Shown here: piece by piece, positions 488 through 53,557 of the stretch
Layout of the letters: each line of letters starts with the position of its first letter
Position numbering within the stretch: the first letter of the stretch is position 1
Source of the DNA: Gammaproteobacteria bacterium
GTDB lineage: Bacteria > Pseudomonadota > Gammaproteobacteria > Tenderiales > Tenderiaceae
Assembly (NCBI GenBank): GCA_021731365.1
Contig: JAKFXL010000017.1
Span: forward strand, 41,755-105,754
Direction: 5' to 3'
Length of the DNA stretch: 64,000 nt
Program-made: the position numbers and the translations under genes
The notes under the pieces: model-generated
Database searches by the model: none
Told to the model about the DNA's origin: nothing
Seen by the model: only the letters and a program-made list of their open reading frames with translations

Positions 488-586
488 GGTGATCTACGCT
501 CTGTTGAATAGTCTGCAGGTCGATATATCGCCACAAACGAGCGTTGCGGAGATTTGTCCGAGTGGATTTGTATTGTTAGCCATTTT

Positions 587-1090
587 TTATGTCAACGGCC
601 AAAACCATATTTCCTTGGATGAAAAATAACATGCAGAGTTACAGACCTGTACAGCATTGGACGTTTCTATCAAGTCAATGTGACCACCACCATAACCTGT
701 TACCTTCCAGAATAAGACCACACCTTTTTTTCCACTCAGTCGTACAACGGCATTACTAGGACTGATCAGTTCTGGTCTCCCAAACAATTGTGGCTTTGCT
801 AGCTGATCAGCCAAAAGTTTTGCACCCGGCTCAATCATTCTTCCTTTATTTGGTCCATCTTTAATTTTTAACCGGCCAGAAAAGTTCATGCCAGACTTTG
901 TTAGGGCAAGACTCATTCTGACTGCGCAGGTGTTTACATAACCCGGGTTTTGCTTTTTCAACTCTTCAATATCATATCCGATTAGCTTATATATCTCTTC
1001 ACCGCTCATGAAGTTTGAATTGTGTTTGTTTGATGAATAGTGATTAGCTTTAAGCGCCATAAAGGGAGGTTTCACTTGATACTCCTGCAT
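587..1090 (-). CDS. tae4: Type VI secretion amidase effector Tae4 family (peptidoglycan DL-endopeptidase)
   Basis: 167 aa. NTCAVRMSLALTKSG aligns with the catalytic-Cys block NACPIRMSYVLN of Salmonella Tae4 as recalled from memory. KKGVVLFWKVTGYGGGHIDLIETS aligns with the His block KKGIIVVKGHGWSNARGHVTLWNGS. Length matches. The gene sits in an AT-rich islet, unlike the flanking genes. Confidence 0.75.
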   Translation of the reverse strand: MQEYQVKPPFMALKANHYSSNKHNSNFMSGEEIYKLIGYDIEELKKQNPGYVNTCAVRMSLALTKSGMNFSGRLKIKDGPNKGRMIEPGAKLLADQLAKPQLFGRPELISPSNAVVRLSGKKGVVLFWKVTGYGGGHIDLIETSNAVQVCNSACYFSSKEIWFWPLT

Positions 1091-1494
1091 GGAAATTGTT
1101 TTCGGAGGATTTTTTTAATTACAGTTGCTGCTCGCTCATTAAGCTGATTATCTGTAAGTTTTCTAAATTCTACAAAAATTGTTTCGTCAATAGTTATGGT
1201 TTTATATGTTTTATAGTCACACCACTCATTTCCTTCTGTTGCATCAAGAACCCCTAGCAAATAAAGCTCTGCGTATCTTCTTTCTTCTACAGAGCCACTC
1301 ATTGAAGTATTAAAATAATCTCTTGCTGTGAGATTTGTATTTTCAATAATGATACTTTGGGTTGAATGCAAGGGCTTCGTAAAATTCGCACTGTAAGTAT
1401 TAGCGTACGATACGGTAATAACAAACACTCCAAACACAATAAATGATGCTTTTTTTATAATGCTCGGTAGTAAATCAATAATGAATTTTGACAT
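1072..1494 (-). CDS. putative Tai4/Rap1a-like periplasmic immunity protein for Tae4
   Basis: 140 aa from internal ATG at 1494 with GGAGG RBS (the track ORF extends further upstream to 1683). N-terminal hydrophobic signal/anchor MSKFIIDLLPSIIKKASFIVFGVFVITV. Motifs YAELYLLGVLDATEGNEWC and a C-terminal FPC, reminiscent of the Rap1a/Tai4 family as recalled from memory. AT-rich like tae4 and overlaps the tae4 start by 19 nt. Confidence 0.5.
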   Translation of the reverse strand: MSKFIIDLLPSIIKKASFIVFGVFVITVSYANTYSANFTKPLHSTQSIIIENTNLTARDYFNTSMSGSVEERRYAELYLLGVLDATEGNEWCDYKTYKTITIDETIFVEFRKLTDNQLNERAATVIKKILRKQFPCRSIK

Positions 1495-1568
1495 AAAACC
1501 TCCGCGGTTAAAATTTATTGGGATGGCTAACGCGCTAATGGTGCGGTATCCCGGCCCACAGGTTGTGA

Positions 1569-2387
1569 TTACGGGTTGTTCTGACTCATAAGTAGAGAGG
1601 CGCGATCGGCGGCCTGATTCAGGGCCGAGATCATGGCGTTCCCCAGTAGCTGCACGCCCCAGCGGTAGCTGCTGCTTTCGCACTGTTTGATGTGGGTCTC
1701 CAACTCCTGGTCTGAGAGGTTGCGGAAGGTGTAGAGGTAGGTCAGCTGGGTGCCCTCCCTGTACGCACCATTGAACGAGTCGCGCACCTCTTTCACCATC
1801 TTATCCATCTCGCTGCTGCCTACCCGCATATCCTCCTCCATCACGGGATTGATGGCAGTGAACACCGCCTTAAAAAAGGCCGCCTGCATATCCACGCCAA
1901 AGTCGGTGATGCGGGTTGCTTTGTCGAGCCGTGCGATCTGTTTCAGTCGCGCCGCTGATGCCGGTTTGGTTTTGAGTGTCGCTGCAAAGGCGTTGAAGTC
2001 ATCGCGGCTTTCCGGTGCGTTACTGGTGCGTTCCAGTTCGGCAATCTTTTTTGAAAGTGGTGACCGTAGCTGTTTTAGATAGGCGGCTCCCTGCTTGGGG
2101 TCGTAATGGGCCTGGATCAGCGCCAGTACATCTTTGCGAACAGCGGCGCTGGCAAAGGCCTGGTTGAAGGCTTGGCTCAAGGCCGAGTTGACCTTTGGCT
2201 CCAGCGCACCACTGCTCTGTTTCAGGGTGTTGTGGGCAAACTGTGGCACATGCTCCACCAATTTATCAAACCCGGTTTCGGTCATGATGGCGTTGATTTC
2301 ACTGCTACGTTCAGCAGCCTGGGCCAGTGACAGGGAGGCGAGGCAGAGCAGTAGGGCGGTCTGGATCAGGGTTCTTGCTTTAATCAT
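1569..2387 (-). CDS. secreted/periplasmic protein of unknown function (DUF2059-like internal repeats)
   Basis: 272 aa with a clear Sec signal peptide (LLLCLASLSLAQAAE). Helical, K/A/Q-rich, with two similar halves. Native GC. Confidence 0.45.
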   Translation of the reverse strand: MIKARTLIQTALLLCLASLSLAQAAERSSEINAIMTETGFDKLVEHVPQFAHNTLKQSSGALEPKVNSALSQAFNQAFASAAVRKDVLALIQAHYDPKQGAAYLKQLRSPLSKKIAELERTSNAPESRDDFNAFAATLKTKPASAARLKQIARLDKATRITDFGVDMQAAFFKAVFTAINPVMEEDMRVGSSEMDKMVKEVRDSFNGAYREGTQLTYLYTFRNLSDQELETHIKQCESSSYRWGVQLLGNAMISALNQAADRASLLMSQNNP

Positions 2388-2449: not shown

Positions 2450-3727
2450 TCAGGCACCGTGGAATTCAGGTTTGTCCCAGAAGGCAAAGCTGAACTCTTC
2501 GATGCTCTCTTTGCAAAGGGTGATGGTTTCCATCACTTCATGGCTATCGCCGTCAATCACCGCCAGCGTGCCCTGGGTCAGGTTGGGGATGAGGATGATC
2601 GGTGACGCCTGCTGCTGTTGCAGGAAGGCGATGGGGCGACGACCGGCGGCACACGGCTCCAGCTTGATCTCATGGATCAGGGTCAGTGCAGGCAGCTTGG
2701 TGCTGTCATAAACCTGGACGATATCGTTGTGCAGGTTCTCCAGCTGAACCCCCTTGCCGGTAGAGGCACCGGTGACATAAAGACGATCACCCGTGAGGTT
2801 GAAGCGGTAGACGCTAGGGTAGAAGTCCTGGATGTCGAGGGCGGTACTGAGTTCGGTCTTGGTGACATCCAGGACACTCAAGCGGCCGATGACATGGTCA
2901 GGGTCTGCCTTGCGGTCTGCCCCCTTGCCAATCAAAAACTTACCACAACGGCTCAGGAGCAGATTACTGCTGAGTGGCATGGGTACAGTGCGCTCCACCT
3001 CGAAGGTCAGCGGATCAATCACCGCTACGCTGTTATAGCCGTTGTTGAGGTTGTAAACCTTGCCAGTGACCGGCGAGAACTCCATGCCATGGGGGAAGGC
3101 GTTGTTGGGTACACCCGCAGCCCCCTCTTTTTCAAAACGGGGATCAAATAGATTAATGGTGGTAATCACCTTAAGGAAGGTGATGGCATCGCTGGGGTCA
3201 TTGCCGACAATCGATAGGGTGCCATCCTCCAGATTGCTGATAAAGGCGCGGTGTGGAATCTGGCTATTGCCGGGAGTAGGGCGGGTAAAGGCAGAGACGT
3301 GGTGACCACGTCCGACCAACAGCGTCTCCAGTACCTCACCAGTGCCATTGGTCTTGGAGGCGACAGTCACCGTCGCGCCATTGTCACCACAGTTCAGGGT
3401 ATCGTTGCCATTCTCATCACCGTCGTTGCTGTACCAGAGACGCACTGAGCCGGGATCGCGGTAGGCGTAGTTAAAGCGGCAGTCGCTCTCTACCTGTTTG
3501 CTGGCGGTGACTGTTTTGGTCACAGGGTCCAGAATCAGGGCGCAACCCTCTGAATTGACACCAAGAAAGACCGAACGGCGGTTAAAATCACCGCCCTTGG
3601 CTGGGGCGCTGGCAAGGGTGGTGACACTGCTTTTGCCGCCTTGACGCTGCACAATCACAACCGCACCAGTGTGGTTGCCATAATCCAGATGGCAGGCGAT
3701 GTTCCAGTCGATGGCCGATGTATCCAT
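2450..3727 (-). CDS. beta-propeller repeat protein (YVTN/NHL-like), no signal peptide
   Basis: 425 aa with repeated Gly/Asp-rich ~40-residue blades (e.g. GKVYNLNNGYNSVAVID, GDRLYVTGASTGKGVQ). Head of a minus-strand gene string leading to tae4. Confidence 0.45.
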   Translation of the reverse strand: MDTSAIDWNIACHLDYGNHTGAVVIVQRQGGKSSVTTLASAPAKGGDFNRRSVFLGVNSEGCALILDPVTKTVTASKQVESDCRFNYAYRDPGSVRLWYSNDGDENGNDTLNCGDNGATVTVASKTNGTGEVLETLLVGRGHHVSAFTRPTPGNSQIPHRAFISNLEDGTLSIVGNDPSDAITFLKVITTINLFDPRFEKEGAAGVPNNAFPHGMEFSPVTGKVYNLNNGYNSVAVIDPLTFEVERTVPMPLSSNLLLSRCGKFLIGKGADRKADPDHVIGRLSVLDVTKTELSTALDIQDFYPSVYRFNLTGDRLYVTGASTGKGVQLENLHNDIVQVYDSTKLPALTLIHEIKLEPCAAGRRPIAFLQQQQASPIILIPNLTQGTLAVIDGDSHEVMETITLCKESIEEFSFAFWDKPEFHGA

Positions 3728-3849
3728 GGTTGATCTTATCCTTCAGAAGCGGGCTAAAAGTGGCTTTATGATAGCAAGGTTTGGCGTGGCTATCTTCAAA
3801 TAGTCTATAGTCCCTATGCTATTGGTGATACCCAAATGTGAAGTGCAGG

Positions 3850-4485
3850 GGATTGTTGAAATTTAACCAGGACGTGTGAAAGACCATGCAAAAAGCGGAA
3901 CCCCAACCAGCGAAAGTACAAAACCAACCGGCCTCCCAGCAGAGGGGCGGCGGGGTGGCCGACTCCCCACAGGCTGAACAGATCGCGCAACTTGAGGCGA
4001 TGGTTGCAGCCAGTTCACATCAGGCAGCGTTGCAGAAGATGGCGGACGGGATGCATAACAGCCTGCGCCAACGGACGGCGCAAAACTTTTTAGAAGGCAT
4101 CAACAACTCCCCGAAGATGGTGGCGCAACGCATGCGGCATGAGCAGATGTTCGGTGTGGCGCAGCTGGAGAAACAGGCCGAGGCCAAACCCAACAATACG
4201 GGGCTGCCGGATAACCTCAAATCCGGCATCGAGAACCTCTCCGGGATGTCGATGGACAACGTCAAGGTTCACTACAACTCGGACCAGCCCGCGCAACTCA
4301 ACGCCCTGGCCTACGCGCAAGGCAGTGACATCCACCTCGCGCCGGGGCAGGAGCAGCATCTGCCGCATGAGGCGTGGCATGTCGTCCAGCAGGCGCAGGG
4401 TCGGGTGCAGCCGACGATGCAGATGAAGGAAGGTATGCTGGTCAATGATGACAAGGGGCTGGAGCATGAGGCGGATGTGATGGGG
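3850..4485 (+). repeat. direct repeat copy 1: shared promoter-proximal plus 5' coding module of the DUF4157 paralogs
   Basis: Essentially 100% identical to 5702..6337 over ~600 nt of coding sequence plus ~36 nt upstream with a few mismatches. Identity ends abruptly after ...GATGTGATGGGGGC. Confidence 0.85.
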
Positions 4486-5619
4486 GCGAGGGCGTTGGAA
4501 TCTGCCGCGCAGCGGGTGACAAAATCGCCCGCTGAGATTGATGTTGCAGCCGGGCCTGTGATGCAGCGCTATGTGGAGGTCGGGGGCGGGGTGAGTCTTT
4601 CGGAGAACAGTGTTTTTGCCGTGAGAGGCGAGGGCAAGGGCAACGAACTGTTTGTGAAAGCGGGTACGCCATTGCCGGCATTCCAGCATGTTGCGTTGCA
4701 GGAAGGCGGCGACACGCTAAAGGTGTCCGGCGTCACGCTTGTCAAGGTGGATGCAGAGTATGAGAACGAAGACGAGTTAGCAAAGATGTATTGCGGAAAG
4801 TTTTCCGAGATGGTGACCGGGGTTAAGGAAAGCGAGGAAAATGAGACGGCGACGTCCGGTAGAAGTCTCTATGTAGATAGCCTATACGATCTTGAAGGCG
4901 ACTATGATGGGGCGTGGCAGAATCACTTCGCGCCGGTGGTTGTCGCCGATGGGTCTGATCGCGGCACCTTGGAGACGGCGGTCGGCATAGACTATATCTG
5001 GCACGGGATTTACGGCAAGAGTCGCGGGCAATCGTTCCGATATAAGACCGCCGTGGCGGATGTGGCGCTTCAACTCAGTCGTCAACGTGTGAGTCCGGAA
5101 CAGGCGCGTGAGGTGTTGGGTTATCTCGCACTCTACGTCAAGGATGGCATTCCAGATAAAGAGTCGATAACGCCACAAATTCTGGATGAGGTGCTGAAGA
5201 TTGAGACGGCGCTGAAAAGTCTTGTCGAGATAGGGTTCAAGGAACCCAAAACAACGGAACTGGGGTCAGCCAAGGAGGCGCGTGAAAAGAGAGAGGGGGA
5301 GGAGCGCAAGAAGCGCTATCTGGGTATCGTGGATGACATTAGCCAAGGCAAGCCCGGCTGGGAAGATCAAGTGAAGCAAGTGCACAAGTACACGATGCGC
5401 GCTCTGATCAGTGAGGCCCTCACGGCGAAGGATTTGACTGAGGATCAGGTGCTCAGGTTGCAGCAGGCCATGGGCATGGTTCAGGAGTCAATGTCGAACT
5501 CTAGTATAAGTTCGCGTCCGGAAAGTTCAGGTCTCTCAGGCCTGCAGGTTCTTGGCGGTCTGTCCATTTTGGCGATTGTAGGGGGGCTCTTGTACTACGC
5601 GAAATATAAGAGGAGCTAA
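3886..5619 (+). CDS. DUF4157 (zincin-like HExxH, eCIS-cargo-associated) domain protein with divergent C-terminal domain and C-terminal TM anchor
   Basis: 577 aa. Residues ~100-170 give LPDNLKSGIENLSGMSMDNVKVHYNSD...GSDIHLAPGQEQHLPHEAWHVVQQ, matching the DUF4157 consensus (FGxDFSxVRVHTD...GxDIxFAPGQY...HELTHVVQQ). Followed by LEHEADVMG. C-terminus GLQVLGGLSILAIVGGLLYYAKYKRS is a transmembrane helix. First in-frame ATG after a TGA. Confidence 0.7.
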   Translation: MQKAEPQPAKVQNQPASQQRGGGVADSPQAEQIAQLEAMVAASSHQAALQKMADGMHNSLRQRTAQNFLEGINNSPKMVAQRMRHEQMFGVAQLEKQAEAKPNNTGLPDNLKSGIENLSGMSMDNVKVHYNSDQPAQLNALAYAQGSDIHLAPGQEQHLPHEAWHVVQQAQGRVQPTMQMKEGMLVNDDKGLEHEADVMGARALESAAQRVTKSPAEIDVAAGPVMQRYVEVGGGVSLSENSVFAVRGEGKGNELFVKAGTPLPAFQHVALQEGGDTLKVSGVTLVKVDAEYENEDELAKMYCGKFSEMVTGVKESEENETATSGRSLYVDSLYDLEGDYDGAWQNHFAPVVVADGSDRGTLETAVGIDYIWHGIYGKSRGQSFRYKTAVADVALQLSRQRVSPEQAREVLGYLALYVKDGIPDKESITPQILDEVLKIETALKSLVEIGFKEPKTTELGSAKEAREKREGEERKKRYLGIVDDISQGKPGWEDQVKQVHKYTMRALISEALTAKDLTEDQVLRLQQAMGMVQESMSNSSISSRPESSGLSGLQVLGGLSILAIVGGLLYYAKYKRS

Positions 5620-5701
5620 GATGCTGGGCTGGAGTTGATTTTTGTCTGTCATAAATTCCCGCAAGGTAGTCCAGTGGCATGTACAGGGCAGCTGCTTAAA
5701 G

Positions 5702-6337
5702 GATTATTGAAATTTAATAAGGACGTGTGAAAAAGCCATGCAAAAAGCGGAACCCCAACCAGCGAAAGTACAAAACCAACCGGCCTCCCAGCAGAGGGGC
5801 GGCGGGGTGGCCGACTCCCCACAGGCTGAACAGATCGCGCAACTTGAGGCGATGGTTGCAGCCAGTTCACATCAGGCAGCGTTGCAGAAGATGGCGGACG
5901 GGATGCATAACAGCCTGCGCCAACGGACGGCGCAAAACTTTTTAGAAGGCATCAACAACTCCCCGAAGATGGTGGCGCAACGCATGCGGCATGAGCAGAT
6001 GTTCGGTGTGGCGCAGCTGGAGAAACAGGCCGAGGCCAAACCCAACAATACGGGGCTGCCGGATAACCTCAAATCCGGCATCGAGAACCTCTCCGGGATG
6101 TCGATGGACAACGTCAAGGTTCACTACAACTCGGACCAGCCCGCGCAACTCAACGCCCTGGCCTACGCGCAAGGCAGTGACATCCACCTCGCGCCGGGGC
6201 AGGAGCAGCATCTGCCGCATGAGGCGTGGCATGTCGTCCAGCAGGCGCAGGGTCGGGTGCAGCCGACGATGCAGATGAAGGAAGGTATGCTGGTCAATGA
6301 TGACAAGGGGCTGGAGCATGAGGCGGATGTGATGGGG
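5702..6337 (+). repeat. direct repeat copy 2 of the DUF4157 5' module
   Basis: See copy 1. The offset between copies is 1852 bp. Confidence 0.85.
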
Positions 6338-17989: not shown

Positions 17990-18200
17990 GCATTGGGGTT
18001 GGCCTGCTTGGAATGGTTGGTGTCTCCGGTGGCGGTTTTTCTCGTTATTTCATTAAAGGGCATGACGCGGGTGACAGAGTATACTTTTGACTCTGGTCTG
18101 ATTTGATGGGGCAGATGATCCAAATGTGCAGGGAGGGATCTCCTTTTGGTGGTGTGCTACAGCAAGGTTTATGAAAGGCCACAGGTCTGAGGGGATTGAA

Positions 18201-19103
18201 ATGGAATTCGAGGAAGTGATTATCAGAGTCTCTTTTCTGGTTGCGCTCTCGCTGTTCGGATATGTGGTGGGGAAACGGCTGGCACTTAACCCTAAAGACA
18301 TTTCATCACTGCTGATCTACTTCATCTCCCCAACAGTGATTTTTATCGCAGTCCTTCAAGCACCCGAAGATGGCCATTACTTTAAGTTCTTTTTGGCAGC
18401 GTATGTGGTGTGTTGCTTTATGTCGGGATTGGCCCTGTGGGTGGGGCGGTTGATCTGGAAAGATAGCCATGCATTTCTATTTGCGTTTTCTGGAGGGACG
18501 GCCAATACCGGCTATTTTGGTCTGCCCATGGCAATTGGGTTGTTTGATAGTGCAGGGGCAGCCATTGCTGTTTTTATTATTCTGGGGGCTAGTCTATATG
18601 AGTTTACAGTGGGCTATTTTCTGGTGTCGCGGGGGAGTGGCACTATAAAAAGCAGTCTTCTGAAAATAGCGAAATTGCCTATTATTTATGCGTTTCTTTT
18701 AGCGGTTATGGTGAGGGCGACAGGAGTAACAATTGATGAAATAGTGGTATCAGGGTTGGAAAATTTTAAGGGGGCGTATACCGTTTTAGGCATGATGGTG
18801 ATAGGCATTACATTGAGTAAGATGCAAACATTTGAGTTTGATGTGAAATATATAACCTATTCAATGTTGTGGAAGTTTCTTGCCTGGCCTGTGATGGGGT
18901 TGATGTTGATAGCTTTTTATCCAGGGGGGATGAGCTCGGTGGAAAAATCTGTGGTTTTGTTGATGTGTTCAGTCCCGATGGCAAGCAATGTGGTGGTTAT
19001 CGCAAATGAGTTGGATGTGCATCCGGAAAAGGCCGCAACGGCGGTGATGATAAGTACTGTTCTGGCGATTATTAGTGTTCCAGTGGCGATTGGGTTTTTA
19101 TAA
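18201..19103 (+). CDS. AEC (auxin-efflux-carrier/malate permease-like) family transporter
   Basis: ~300 aa polytopic membrane protein starting MEFEEVIIRVSFLVALSLFGYVVG with GAGGGG RBS. Lower GC than neighbours. The track ORF begins at 18126, but Met26 with RBS is preferred. Confidence 0.75.
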   Translation: MEFEEVIIRVSFLVALSLFGYVVGKRLALNPKDISSLLIYFISPTVIFIAVLQAPEDGHYFKFFLAAYVVCCFMSGLALWVGRLIWKDSHAFLFAFSGGTANTGYFGLPMAIGLFDSAGAAIAVFIILGASLYEFTVGYFLVSRGSGTIKSSLLKIAKLPIIYAFLLAVMVRATGVTIDEIVVSGLENFKGAYTVLGMMVIGITLSKMQTFEFDVKYITYSMLWKFLAWPVMGLMLIAFYPGGMSSVEKSVVLLMCSVPMASNVVVIANELDVHPEKAATAVMISTVLAIISVPVAIGFL

Positions 19104-26202: not shown

Positions 26203-26565
26203 CCGGAGTTGGCTAAGCAACCGCGGTGTGCCAGATTTAGGTCTGGTGCATGGAGGAAAGTCCGGGCTCCACAGGGCAGGGTGCCAGGTAACGCCTGGGA
26301 GGCGTGAGTCTACGGAAAGTGCAACAGAAAATAAACCGCCTACGTCTCTTTCGGGAGGCCGGTAAGGTTGAAATGGTGCGGTAAGAGCGCACCGCGTCGG
26401 TGGCAACATTCGACGGCTAGGTAAACCCCACCCGGAGCAAGGCCAAATAGGGGAACAATGGCGCTGCCCGCGCTGTTCCCGGGTAGGCTGCTTGAGGTGT
26501 ATGGTGACATACACCCCAGATGAATGGTTGCTCTTGACAGAACCCGGCTTATCGGCCGACTCCTT
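26203..26565 (+). ncRNA. rnpB: RNase P RNA (bacterial type A)
   Basis: Universally conserved blocks are present: GGAGGAAAGTCCGGGCTCCACAGGGCAGGGTGCCAGGTAACGCCTGGG, GTGCAACAGAAAA, AAGGTTGAAATGGTGCGGTAAGAGCGCACC, CAAGGCCAAATAGGGGAA and ACAGAACCCGGCTTATCGG. P1 pairing is CCGGAGTTGGC / GCCGACTCC. TATACT -10 box at 26193. Followed by a terminator. Confidence 0.85.
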
Positions 26566-26578
26566 TTTAAATTTTGAT

Positions 26579-41319: not shown

Positions 41320-42107
41320 TGCAGTTGCCCTGGCAGCAGAAGAAGAAAAAGAGCAATCAGCGCAACGTCCCGCAGAGCGGGTCGCGCTGGCCGGGGCCTG
41401 CTCTGTTGCAGATGAATTGGCAACGGTTGGGCATGAATCTTCTGGCCTTGGCGGTATTGGCCGGTGTGGCGGCGGGCTGGCTGACACTGATGAAGCCGAC
41501 CACGCTGCCCATGAAGCAGCTGCAAGTCGAAGCACCGTTTGTGCACGTCACACGTGATGAACTCTATCAGGTGATGAAACCCGTAGCTAAAGGTGGGTTT
41601 TTTAATGTGGATGTGGATGCGGTGACTGAGGCGGTTGAGTCGTTACCGTGGGTCAGCAGTGTATCGGTACAACGGGTTTGGCCAGATGCCCTGCACGTGG
41701 CGGTACGGGAACAGACGGCACTGGCGCGTTGGCATAACCATTCGCTGGTGAGTGAACAGGGAGAAATTTTTACACCGGCAGCAGATACCATTCCCGCTGG
41801 ACTGGTGGAGCTGCAGGGGCCTGATAGCACCGTGGTTCATGTGGCTGAATTGTTCAGGGTATTCAGAGAGATATTGCAGCCAGCGCAGCTGGAGATGAAA
41901 CGTCTGGTCTTGTCGCCACGCCGCGCCTGGACACTGGAGTTAAGTAACGGTGAGGTGGTGTTGCTGGGGCGTGAAGTAGTGCAGCAGCGGCTGGAGCGCT
42001 TTGTACAGTTCTACCCACAGATAGAGGGGGAACCAGCGGCGTTGCAGCAGGTAGATATGCGTTATCCCAACGGTTTTGCAATTCAGTGGCAAAAGCCACA
42101 AGCGTAA
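41316..42107 (+). CDS. ftsQ: cell division protein FtsQ
   Basis: 263 aa, single TM plus POTRA. Conserved position. Confidence 0.85.
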   Translation: MMQLPWQQKKKKSNQRNVPQSGSRWPGPALLQMNWQRLGMNLLALAVLAGVAAGWLTLMKPTTLPMKQLQVEAPFVHVTRDELYQVMKPVAKGGFFNVDVDAVTEAVESLPWVSSVSVQRVWPDALHVAVREQTALARWHNHSLVSEQGEIFTPAADTIPAGLVELQGPDSTVVHVAELFRVFREILQPAQLEMKRLVLSPRRAWTLELSNGEVVLLGREVVQQRLERFVQFYPQIEGEPAALQQVDMRYPNGFAIQWQKPQA

Positions 42108-51186: not shown

Positions 51187-51792
51187 ATGCCGTTGTGCTG
51201 AGTTGATGGGGTGTAGTGTTTTATGTCGAAGTGGCAAGAGGCGGGGGGGTTGTTGTCGTAGTCAACGTGGAGGCTGAGTAGTAAATAGTTGGTAGGACTA
51301 TCTTTTTATGCTTCTCTCTCGCACCAGTATTCTTCTATTTCTCATCTATTGATGGCCAACTATTGGCGATGATAGCGCTCATCGTTACTATTCCATTTTG
51401 GCCGTTAACTCGCCATACCAATACAAGCCACTGCCGGAGTTTTTACAACCTACTTTACTGTATGGACGATGGCCTTTTTTCAGGCTTGGTGCGCCGCTGT
51501 TTTTCTACGTAAATGTGCGATAAAGAAAGGTATGGAAGTACGCGCTGAATTGCTGGGGATGATTAAACGTTCTGGTGTGATGTTGTTAATGGCGTTTATT
51601 GTAGTTGTCAGTGTTGCTATTTTTATTAAAATTATTTATTAATCAATCAATTGGTTGTTAATAGTTTTGTTGCTGTTATTTCCCATTTAGATTCAGCCAT
51701 TGGTCAAATTTGAAAGCACATCGTCTTAATATGATGGTGGTTAACGTGTGTTTGAGGACGGTACGGATAGAAGGTTATAGGCGGCCTACCCC

Positions 51793-52233
51793 ATGATAAA
51801 AGCGCTAATCGTAGGTGCTGCTGCGGTGTCTCTCAGCATGTTTTTGTTTGCTGGTTGTTCAGTGCGGAGTCATGAGCTTACACCGCAGCAATTTTGGACT
51901 GAGTTTAGCCAGGCAGTTTTGATTCAGGATAATCAGAAGCTGATAGATTTGGTGCAGTTTCCATTGGAGGTTTTGGGTGTTGATGATAGTCAACCTCCAG
52001 AACAATACAACAAGGCGCAGTTTGAAGCGGTGTTCAAAAAGATAGTGGAACAACCAGTTTTCACTTTTGCGGGGGATGGTGTGGTTACACGCACAACAAG
52101 AGATATTATTCAGGAGACTTCGGTGATTACGCAGGAGCACTTCATGACCAAGGAGGCTTTCCGGGTGGATCAACTGGTATTTGAGTTGAAAGACAAGCAG
52201 TGGAGATTGGTTCGAGCCTATTTGGAGGAGTAA
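51793..52233 (+). CDS. hypothetical lipoprotein
   Basis: 146 aa with lipobox LFAGC. Low GC. Preceded by a ~600-bp AT-rich non-coding region. Followed by a strong terminator. Confidence 0.55.
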   Translation: MIKALIVGAAAVSLSMFLFAGCSVRSHELTPQQFWTEFSQAVLIQDNQKLIDLVQFPLEVLGVDDSQPPEQYNKAQFEAVFKKIVEQPVFTFAGDGVVTRTTRDIIQETSVITQEHFMTKEAFRVDQLVFELKDKQWRLVRAYLEE

Positions 52234-52270
52234 CATACAATGCAGTGGCTGTACGTGGCGCTAACCAACA

Positions 52271-52297
52271 AAAAACCCGCCGAAGCGGGTTTTTTTA
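52271..52297. terminator. bidirectional rho-independent terminator (lipoprotein gene / rpmG)
   Basis: AAAAACCCGCCGAAGCGGGTTTTTTT; A-tract and T-tract on both sides. Confidence 0.8.
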
Positions 52298-52319
52298 TCA
52301 GATCCAGTGTAAGCAGTGC

Positions 52320-52487
52320 TTACTTGATCTTGGCTTCCTTGTAAGGAACGTGTTTGCGAACGACGGGATCAAACTTACTCATCTCCATCTTCTCAGGCAT
52401 GGTGCGTTTGTTTTTGTCAGTGGTGTAGAAATGGCCGGTACCGGCGGTGGACACCAATTTAATCTTTTCACGTGCACTTTTGGCCAT
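52320..52487 (-). CDS. rpmG: 50S ribosomal protein L33
   Basis: Hand-translated 55 aa [55 protein letters not shown]. Below the ORF-track length cutoff. Confidence 0.9.
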
Positions 52488-52489
52488 GA

Positions 52490-52732
52490 TTAACCCCTAA
52501 TCTTTTCGCCGCGGGCGCGGAGTTCAGACAGAACGACGTCAATGCCGCGTTTGTCGATGATGCGCATACCCTTTGAAGAGACGCGCAGTGAAATAAAGCG
52601 CTTTTCGCCTTCAACCCAGAAACGATGGGAGTGCAGATTTGGCAGAAAGCGGCGCTTGGTTTTGTTGTTGGCGTGGGAAACTGAGTTTCCGACCATAGGG
52701 CCTTTGCCCGTCACCTGACATACTCTCGACAT
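52490..52732 (-). CDS. rpmB: 50S ribosomal protein L28
   Basis: [34 protein letters not shown]… Classic L28. Confidence 0.95.
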
Positions 52733-52882
52733 GAGTTTTGCTCCAAATAATTCTTTTTTGCCATAGCCAAAATGGCAGAGAGGCGAAATTCTATAGATTT
52801 AGCTACTGGGTTTCAAGTATTAGTTTGGGTTTTGTTGGTATTTGTCCTACGGGTGTGTCCAAGTGGTTGATTACCTAAGGGC

Positions 52883-53557
52883 TCATAGCGCGCCCCGTTC
52901 GGCCAGTGATACCTGCTCGCCATCGCCGATGATGATGTGGTCGAGTACACGCACGCCGATGAGTGACAGGGCTGACTTGAGCTGTTGAGTGATCTGGTGG
53001 TCGGCCTGGCTCGGCTCGGCGAAGCCTGAGGGGTGGTTGTGGGCGAATATGACGGCGGCGGCGTTGTGGTGCAGTGCCCGTTTGACAACCTCCCGTGGGT
53101 AGACGCTGGCGCTGTCGAGTGTGCCAAAGAACAGCTCTTCGAAGCGAATGACGCGGTTGCGGTTGTCGAGGAAGAGGCAGGCGAATACTTCATGTTGATG
53201 GTCACGCAGACGCAGGCTGAGATAGTGGCGGGTCTCGGCGGGGTTGGTCAGCGGCGCGCCGCGTTTCAAGCGTTCGCCGCTATGACGGCGTCCCATTTCG
53301 AGCACGGCCTGGAGCTGTGCAAATTTAGCGCTGCCTAGGCCTTTGCTGCTGCAGAACTGTTGTTGGCTTGCATCAAGTAGGGCGCGCAGGCTGCCGTGCT
53401 CTTCAAGCAGGTCGCGGGCGAGGTCAACGGCGGTTTTGCCGATGATGCCCGTTCGCAGAAAAATTGCCAGAAGTTCGGCGTCAGAGAGGGCCGCGGCCCC
53501 TTTTTGCAGTAGTTTTTCACGGGGACGTTCGTCGGCGGGCCAGTCGGTGATTGCCAT
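52883..53557 (-). CDS. radC: RadC-family JAB/MPN domain protein (UPF0758)
   Basis: 224 aa. HhH N-terminus and JAMM motif HNHPSG. Confidence 0.9.

Follow-up and report, generated by a model that had tools for sequence, protein, structure and literature searches.

How do orphan type VI secretion system (T6SS) effector-immunity pairs move when no mobility gene is visible beside them? This open practical question is raised by a small islet in a stretch of 64,000 nucleotides (positions 41,755 to 105,754 of contig JAKFXL010000017.1, assembly GCA_021731365.1, from a member of the Tenderiaceae), which was analysed as a whole and is called the window here. The islet holds a gene for a Rap1a-like immunity protein followed by a gene for a Tae4-family effector, and a first-pass annotation had described it as an orphan module acquired horizontally. 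We reach a more specific reading, to which we give a probability of roughly 80%: the islet (about 556-1531) is an integron cassette of two genes without a promoter of their own, which became fixed in the chromosome of a Candidatus Tenderia-like gammaproteobacterium, outside an integron.

The protein pair is an ordinary member of a structurally solved family; what is new on that side is the host, from an uncultivated electroautotroph lineage, and the point of interest is the vehicle. Neither orphan effector-immunity modules nor integron cassettes inserted into genomes are new in themselves. Kirchberger et al. (2017) noted a resemblance to integrons and stated that evidence for an integrase in effector-immunity insertion was lacking (PMC5361080). 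In the part of the literature accessible to us, we found no account of integron cassettes carrying a T6SS effector-immunity pair.

Integron-type core boxes bracket the islet

The islet is read on the minus strand. Its parts, in the direction of reading, are the following.

1525..1531, minus strand: R'-type core box GTTAGCC, 37 nt 5' of the immunity ATG, with the 5' cassette boundary at G/TTAGCC
1499..1503, minus strand: Shine-Dalgarno sequence GGAGG, 4 nt 5' of the immunity ATG, read from the sequence
1072..1494, minus strand: immunity gene of the Rap1a/Tai4a type, 140 aa, from matches to PF18602 and to Protein Data Bank (PDB) entries
1082..1086, minus strand: Shine-Dalgarno sequence AGGAG, 6 nt 5' of the effector GTG and within the end of the immunity gene, read from the sequence
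587..1075, minus strand: effector gene, predicted Ssp1-like Tae4 peptidoglycan DL-endopeptidase, 162 aa from GTG 1075 (alternative ATG 1090, 167 aa)
575..581, minus strand: R''-type inverse core box GGCTAAC, 5 nt past the effector stop, inside the 16-nt junction TAAAAAATGGCTAACA (574-589)
556..574, minus strand: remnant of an attC 5' half, the spacer AATACAAAT followed by an L''-like CCACTCGGAC, from comparison with the flanks of the homologous loci L007, L013 and L008

The heptamer GTTAGCC/GGCTAAC has only four occurrences in the 64 kb, and two of them bracket the islet in inverted orientation. The sixth base of the R' box, a C, is one off the G/TTRRRY consensus (the slash marks the cassette boundary), and the identical deviation is seen in a complete integron, L008, which carries a homologous pair. 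Similarity between the window and L008 runs from CGTTAGCCA at the R' box to the identical 16-mer TAAAAAATGGCTAACA at the R'' box; in L008 this 16-nt junction is the start of the attC site that follows the Rap1a-Tae4 pair. Another copy, L025, is 85% identical and lies in a different context, and its likeness to the window likewise starts at the R' box (GTTAGCCAT). The sequence before the GTTAGCC box is unrelated between the window and either of these loci.

The boxes recur at other copies of the pair. Five of 11 independent lineages have an exact GTTAGCC 34-62 nt 5' of the immunity ATG (binomial P 2.8e-9, with 100 nt upstream scanned). A perfect complementary R'/R'' pair brackets five of the 32 de-duplicated orphan entries, which amount to 31 independent lineages, since the window and L002 go back to a single insertion. 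Four different core sequences are found among the five (GTTAGCC, GTTAGCT, GTTAGCA and GTTAGCG). No such pair brackets any of the 12 T6SS-embedded copies, and it appears in 0.2% of shuffled flanks. A simple regular-expression scan for RYYYAAC...GTTRRRY pairs gave mostly noise, L008 excepted. An 11-nt perfect inverted repeat (585-595 / 1488-1498), lying over the effector stop and the immunity start, was rejected as a general boundary element because it is kept only in the Tenderia lineage and is missing from independent insertions.

The composition of the islet sets it apart from the rest of the window. With a GC content of 37.1%, 587-1494 is the lowest of all 908-bp stretches in the 64 kb (mean 55.6%, standard deviation 4.2%). 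The effector gene has 40.7% GC (38.7% at third codon positions, GC3) and the immunity gene 33.1% (GC3 26.2%), against 56-59% (GC3 60-72%) for five flanking genes. The first-pass annotation had noted that both genes are AT-rich against their flanks, which is true and in fact stronger than it stated; the horizontal acquisition that it proposed is supported as well. The cassette ends, which it missed, would explain the AT-richness together with the compactness, the apparent lack of a promoter and the orphan location.

No sigma-70-like promoter was predicted on the minus strand between 300 and 2600 by a simple consensus match scan, and no intrinsic terminator was predicted on that strand around the islet. 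The lack of a predicted promoter is consistent with read-through from two genes that precede the islet on the same strand, which would then be co-transcribed with it: a 425-aa gene (2450-3727, minus strand) for a beta-propeller-like protein and a 272-aa gene (1569-2387, minus strand) for a secreted protein that matches no family. Their 424-aa and 271-aa homologues in Ca. Tenderia electrophaga are listed as transcribed in the available part of Table S3 of PMC5371394.

A homologous pair occurs as a mobile cassette within a complete integron

L008 belongs to the metagenome-assembled genome (MAG) Gammaproteobacteria bacterium Ga0074134, and L028 is the same element, a sedentary chromosomal integron. 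Its integron integrase matches TIGR02249 with 486.7 bits (cut-off 265), is encoded beside recG, and is divergent from an array of at least six attC-separated cassettes, the fifth of which is the Rap1a-Tae4 pair. This pair is 67% identical to that of the window by tblastn and 69% by alignment. The attC sites take the form R'' (GGCTAAC or CTCTAAC)-CTCAAGGGGAC...GCCCCTTAG-R' (GTTAGCC), with two extrahelical bases and one compensatory A-T to G-C change. The window and L008/L028 share the 5' end GTTAGCCA.C.CAATAAA and the identical 16-nt 3' junction. They differ in their state: the integron copy is a mobile cassette with a complete attC on both sides and the integrase gene intI 3.2 kb away, whereas the window copy is immobilised in a housekeeping region.

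Integron features also accompany the pair elsewhere. The attC hairpins were scored by explicit DNA folds, the automatic hairpin finder being too strict (it missed a known L008 site), and complete hairpins were found after the effector gene in L048 (z -5.7), L040 (z -5.2) and L042 (z -4.4). The Rap1a-Tae4 pair is thereby seen as an attC-flanked cassette in a complete integron and as cassettes with other attC families in other lineages. In L039, a Tara Oceans scaffold (3078-7702), an integron integrase (470 bits) lies 13 nt past the effector stop, in convergent orientation to the pair. The same scaffold has a YoeB toxin gene upstream. Beyond the integrase it has an IS91 transposase with a Xer-like recombinase, which suggests a rearranged integron.

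Integron integrases (IntI) insert cassettes at genomic 5'-GWT-3' sites, where they are expressed if they lie behind a resident promoter, and Loot et al. suggest that such cassettes undergo a 'domestication', attC hairpins being easily deleted by replication slippage (10.1101/2022.09.11.507474). The islet resembles these genome-inserted cassettes, or SALINs, in being an apparently promoterless unit of about 0.95 kb with a G/TTRRRY start and an RYYYAAC box after it, co-directional behind resident expressed genes and with no integrase nearby. A SALIN is defined by a detectable attC, whereas the islet keeps only the R'' box and an L''-like remnant. Because the hairpin is gone, the window copy would be a fossil derived from a cassette, no longer functional as one, and would not count as a SALIN. 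A decayed cassette behind expressed housekeeping genes would correspond to the final state proposed by Loot et al. for cassettes inserted into genomes. Fossils of this type, of which only the 7-nt core boxes remain, would escape standard integron tools.

The effector and its translation start

The effector open reading frame (ORF) at 587..1090 (minus strand) gives 167 aa from an ATG, and the co-directional upstream ORF at 1072..1494 (minus strand) gives 140 aa. The motifs read in the translations were NTCAVRMSLAL and GGHIDLIETS for the effector and YAELYLLGVLDATEGNEWC...FPC for the upstream protein. No Shine-Dalgarno sequence precedes the effector ATG at 1090, while AGGAG lies 6 nt before the GTG at 1075. 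A length of 162 aa is shared by nearly all of 410 homologues, public assemblies call the 162-aa GTG-start form, and an exact look-up of the 167-aa product returned nothing on record. The most likely start is GTG 1075 (162 aa), so the gene overlap is probably the 4-nt GTGA and not 19 nt. This stop/start overlap (1072-1075), together with the AGGAG inside the immunity gene, suggests translational coupling. A longer immunity ORF listed by the ORF tool (1072..1683, GTG start) was rejected as an over-extension into the neighbouring gene.

The earlier assignment of the effector to the Tae4 amidase family was confirmed. It matches Pfam Tae4 (PF14113) with 63.2 bits (cut-off 27) over profile positions 1-125 of 125, and the catalytic Cys and His are present. 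In the PDB, it matches Serratia marcescens Ssp1 over its full length (4BI3, E 8e-55, residues 7-166) and Agrobacterium Tae4 (6IJF, E 3.6e-30), and it is marginal against the canonical Enterobacter Tae4 (4HFK, E 0.0077). The key residues of Ssp1, Cys50, His133, Asp135, Asn48, Tyr129 and the disulfide Cys146-Cys150 (PMC3852654), correspond to Cys55, His137, Asp139, Asn53, Tyr133 and Cys150/Cys154 of the islet protein (167-aa numbering). The Cys-His-Asp triad, the Asn, the Tyr and the disulfide Cys pair are invariant among independent effector homologues. The maximum 12-aa hydropathy within the first 40 residues is 0.31, which by this heuristic indicates no Sec signal, and the protein is basic (pI 9.5); Ssp1 and Ssp2 are likewise described as basic and without a hydrophobic N-terminus. 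By analogy with the characterised homologues, the islet protein would be an endopeptidase acting on the bond between D-Glu and meso-diaminopimelic acid (mDAP).

The immunity protein

The upstream protein is above the cut-off of Pfam Rap1a (PF18602, 45.5 bits against 27.7), as the effector is for Tae4. It matches Rap1a in the PDB (3ZFI/4BI8, E 8e-21, residues 48-138) and, more weakly, Agrobacterium Tai4 (6IJF_A, E 1e-6). Ssp1 and Rap1a are the two partners of the solved 4BI8 complex, and the islet proteins match both. A Pfam scan of the immunity protein for the canonical Tai4 (Rap2a/EcTai4-like), at E values up to 1, gave Rap1a alone. None of EcTai4, StTai4 and Rap2a was returned by the PDB search with this protein, which gave only Rap1a and the Rap1a-like Agrobacterium Tai4. 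Ssp1-like effectors are always paired with Rap1a-type ('Tai4a') immunity, which is structurally unrelated to canonical Tai4 (Srikannathasan et al., PMC3852654). Of the first-pass label 'Tai4/Rap1a-like', the Rap1a part is borne out by PF18602 and 3ZFI, and the Tai4 part has to be dropped since the two kinds are structurally unrelated (PMC3852654).

The N-terminus of the immunity protein has a K-rich and unusually long n-region, a hydrophobic core at aa 16-29 and S-Y-A before Asn32, with a peak 12-aa hydropathy of 2.69 (aa 18-29). Judged by eye and by hydropathy, it resembles a Sec signal peptide, which would place the protein in the periplasm. Cys92 and Cys136, the conserved Cys pair, are kept, and Lys98 aligns with the active-site plug Gln84 of Rap1a. 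From the characterised homologues, a periplasmic dimer of the immunity protein would be expected to neutralise the effector.

The nearest characterised system is the Ssp1-Rap1a pair of Serratia marcescens Db10 (4BI3, 3ZFI, 4BI8). Both partners are homologous to those of the islet, and the two systems share the triad, Asn, Tyr and disulfide pair of the effector, the Cys pair of the immunity protein and probably its N-terminal export signal, and an immunity gene that comes first. The Serratia pair lies within a T6SS cluster beside hcp, whereas the islet pair is isolated among housekeeping genes and bounded by core boxes. The islet immunity protein also has a longer N-terminal region (140 against 127 aa in total) and differs from Rap1a at contact residues: Gln84 is replaced by Lys98, Ser81 by Lys and Gln82 by Thr. 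Cross-immunity with Serratia is not expected because the plug Gln84 and other contact residues differ. The Tae4-Tai4 pair of Agrobacterium tumefaciens belongs to the same subgroup and is a more distant relative than that of Serratia. It is encoded, we presume, in the hcp operon of a T6SS cluster. The canonical Tae4-Tai4 pairs of Enterobacter cloacae and Salmonella Typhimurium (4HFK and relatives) share the Pfam Tae4 family and presumably the bond specificity, but their Rap2a-like Tai4 immunity proteins are of a kind structurally unrelated to the Rap1a type of the islet (PMC3852654).

Gene order and selection

The immunity-then-effector order had been taken as the reverse of the canonical one. 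It is instead the rule in the Ssp1/Rap1a subgroup, with no inversion: the immunity gene comes first in all 12 independent genome lineages retaining both genes, in 73 of 80 metagenomic loci, within T6SS clusters (L024, for example) and in Serratia, where SMA2260 is rap1a and SMA2261 is ssp1 (PMC3533786). L011, which has a truncated effector and no Rap1a match, was left out of the 12-lineage count.

The nearest copies are those of GCA_947085515.1 (99% identical) and of the MAG Candidatus Tenderia sp. VAR_39_metabat_422 (93%). Both have the 425-aa gene, the 272-aa gene, Rap1a, Tae4 and DUF2288 in synteny with the window. Against the 93%-identical Tenderia MAG copy, whose flanking genes have about 96% nucleotide identity, dN/dS is 0.22 for the immunity gene, 0.33 for the effector gene and 0.04-0.08 for neighbouring genes, all from few substitutions. 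The shared synteny and the dN/dS values indicate that the islet has been inherited vertically in the Tenderia clade and is still under purifying selection. In other lineages there are possible cases of effector decay: in L012 (about 10016-10499), tblastn aligns the effector in two overlapping segments that lie in different frames, an apparent frameshift, and the immunity gene next to it is intact; in L011 (10001-10354), the effector is truncated to residues 50-167.

Homologous pairs at unrelated sites

Rap1a-Tae4 pairs of 0.87-0.92 kb were found at unrelated sites in other lineages. These include sites between a pfkB-like gene and uvrD, between mnmA and an HD-domain gene, beside an Rhs toxin gene in Thauera, and beside a beta-lactamase gene in Azonexus. 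In Ca. Thiosymbion oneisti (L015/L016; about 9630-10489 in L015), the pair lies within the ribosomal-protein operon, between rpsM and rpsK and co-directional with it. This is an unusual spot for foreign genes, and a promoterless cassette would be sure of high expression there. The five independent orphan insertions that have gene calls are all co-directional with the upstream gene, and in every lineage examined the GC content of the pair is 10-19 points under that of the host.

Other copies are part of T6SS clusters. In L024, a full cluster has a 65%-identical pair between Hcp and TssE, in the order ...Hcp, TagJ, ..., Rap1a, Tae4, TssE, TssF, TssG, ClpV. T6SS core genes are found within 4 kb of the pair in 33 of the 80 metagenomic loci; among these 80, copies with at least 60% identity are almost all orphan, and the 52-58% group is mostly T6SS-embedded. 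Embedding in T6SS clusters is seen among relatives with 53-66% identity. Since Ca. Thiosymbion oneisti has an orphan copy and a T6SS is listed for it in a figure legend of PMC8269255, an orphan location is compatible with delivery in trans.

In Thauera butanivorans (L018, 10672-15454), the pair is directly 5' of a gene for a DUF6531-RHS-phospholipase A2 toxin, which is followed by a small ORF. This group forms a small antibacterial toxin cluster away from any T6SS gene.

Proposed history of the islet and competing explanations

If the pair works as its homologues Serratia Ssp1-Rap1a and Agrobacterium Tae4-Tai4 do, the effector would be made without a signal peptide and exported by a T6SS to the periplasm of neighbouring Gram-negative cells, where it would cleave peptidoglycan stem peptides at the gamma-D-Glu-mDAP bond. 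The secreted immunity protein would protect sister cells by binding the effector and blocking its active site. The ends of the islet suggest how the pair may have arrived. An integron integrase would have excised it as a cassette from an array like that of L008, and the cassette would have been inserted at a genomic G/TT site 3' of the expressed 425-aa/272-aa gene pair. Later loss of most of the attC hairpin would have immobilised it, and from then on it would have been inherited vertically within the Tenderia clade.

Several observations weigh against this reading. The integron signature in the window consists of two 7-nt boxes and a short adjoining similarity; beyond the R'' box and the L''-like remnant, the L'/R' half of an attC is absent. 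DNA folds of the islet end gave z values of -0.7 to -1.3, which are not significant for a hairpin. An attC covariance model was built from four L008 sites and is narrow, representing a single integron. It recovers two held-out L008 sites (35.3 and 27.7 bits) and gives weak or no matches in other lineages (the L048 match, 24.1 bits with default filters, was not returned with filters off). With filters off it has no match at the islet, and it found no other attC in the window. There is no integrase within the 64 kb, the best six-frame tblastn match to IntI having an E value of 0.97. Most orphan entries (27 of 32) are without a perfect box pair, and the L039 pair is on the 3' side of intI, a non-canonical array position. 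No clean empty site was found, the region in Ca. T. electrophaga being rearranged. As to delivery, no T6SS genes were seen in the 10-kb flanks of the Tenderia relatives, and in the available part of the Ca. T. electrophaga gene table, about 44% of the genes, none is annotated as 'type VI', Hcp, VgrG, baseplate or contractile. T6SS delivery in the window organism is therefore putative; as the table is of a different species, its silence is weak negative evidence. In the literature accessible to us, no paper linking Tenderia with a T6SS was found either.

The lack of a hairpin and an integrase in the window, and of perfect boxes at most orphan entries, would suit an ordinary orphan T6SS module brought in by generic horizontal transfer, that is, by transformation followed by homologous or illegitimate recombination. 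Under this explanation, GTTAGCC and GGCTAAC would be inherited 5' and 3' untranslated sequence, irrelevant to the insertion of the window copy. Orphan effector-immunity pairs are common, and homologous recombination is favoured for effector-immunity exchange in Vibrio (Kirchberger et al., PMC5361080). However, the similarity to L008 and L025 starts exactly at GTTAGCC, with unrelated sequence before it, and ends at R''. The same boxes are the attC cores in L008, and a complementary pair is expected by chance in only 0.2% of cases. We regard generic transfer as unlikely, and even under it the unit would still be of cassette descent, only the last insertion step being different.

A separate doubt concerns what the cassette is for. 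The host may have no T6SS and may keep the cassette for immunity alone, against Ssp1-type attacks by neighbours, with the effector as a decaying hitch-hiker or the pair as a selfish, addiction-like module. Integron cassettes are sampled whatever machinery the host has, orphan Rap-type immunity genes are known (PMC3852654), and the frameshifted effector of L012, beside its intact immunity gene, and the truncated one of L011 fit such a history. So does the lack of T6SS genes in the window, in three Tenderia-clade flanks and in the available part of the Ca. T. electrophaga table. On the other hand, the islet effector is intact, keeps every catalytic residue, has a dN/dS of 0.33 and appears to be translationally coupled to the immunity gene. 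The orphan copy of Ca. Thiosymbion oneisti coexists with the T6SS of that figure legend (PMC8269255), and 64 kb is a small view of the window genome. We hold immunity alone to be doubtful, though less so than generic transfer. Delivery by another route, such as vesicles, lysis or an extracellular contractile injection system (eCIS) tied to the neighbouring DUF4157/eCIS_core genes, seems very improbable. Two tandem eCIS_core genes do lie 2.4 kb away (3886-5619 and 5738-7969), but Pfam scans found no eCIS sheath, tube or baseplate genes in the window. The DUF4157 genes are also strain-variable, with none listed at the same position in the available Ca. T. electrophaga table, many genomes have the same cassette without DUF4157 neighbours, and every characterised family member (Ssp1, AtTae4) is a T6SS substrate.

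Beyond the window, an integron cassette at this site would bear on how such pairs spread. We lean, if only slightly, towards the view that T6SS effector-immunity modules circulate as integron cassettes, with integrases moving Ssp1/Rap1a among arrays of differing attC families and to GWT sites. If so, the loss of attC at GWT sites would fix cassettes as 'orphan' modules, and small orphan pairs without mobility genes, including the copy in the ribosomal operon of Ca. Thiosymbion, would have a testable mechanism of spread. Integron cargo would then extend to interbacterial weapons. In a stronger form of the idea, cassettes would be kept for immunity alone in T6SS-less hosts such as Tenderia.

The islet position in Ca. 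Tenderia electrophaga and the rest of the window

In the available part of Table S3 of PMC5371394, the 424-aa and 271-aa homologues lie beside rnd in Ca. T. electrophaga, with no cassette after them and a cold-shock gene 48 bp after the 271-aa gene. That cold-shock gene points the other way, and neither DUF2288 nor its neighbours are found at this position. With this larger rearrangement at the islet position, the genome was rejected as a clean empty site. The 272-aa and 425-aa genes may be a pair of adjacent, conserved Tenderiales-specific orthogroups (LVIVD-repeat and signal-peptide proteins) described in a preprint (10.1101/2022.05.06.490989). The accessions given there point to another Ca. 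T. electrophaga region, which leaves this match a candidate only.

The remaining window is housekeeping DNA, with rnd, a gene for a methyl-accepting chemotaxis protein, SulP, the dcw cluster, lpxC, secA, argJ and others. The earlier statement that no T6SS structural genes are present in the window holds: 46 large ORFs were scanned against Pfam, and TssA/B/C, Hcp, TssE/F/G and ClpV served as probes in six-frame tblastn, all without a T6SS match. A plasmid origin of the islet was rejected, there being no blastn match in PLSDB, and there is no tRNA in the window that could serve as an island landmark.

The tandem genes at 3886-5619 and 5738-7969 (both plus strand) encode proteins of 577 and 743 aa whose N-terminal 209 aa are 99% identical (206/209). 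Within this shared part lies an eCIS_core/DUF4157 domain of Pfam, which includes an HEAWH motif. The two proteins are unrelated in their C-termini, a polymorphic-toxin-like architecture, and neither gene is followed by an evident immunity ORF. What lies between rnd and the 425-aa gene differs among strains: the Tenderia MAG carries a single DUF4157 gene of 330 aa, GCA_947085515.1 an IS110 transposase, and Ca. T. electrophaga nothing.

Further low-GC patches (45-48% against 56%) were seen at about 18000-19000, overlapping a Mem_trans (AEC-family) transporter gene, and at 51200-52900, without an ORF of 150 aa or more. The sole Rfam match in the window is a bacterial RNase P RNA of class A at 26205-26567 on the plus strand (RF00010, 342 bits).

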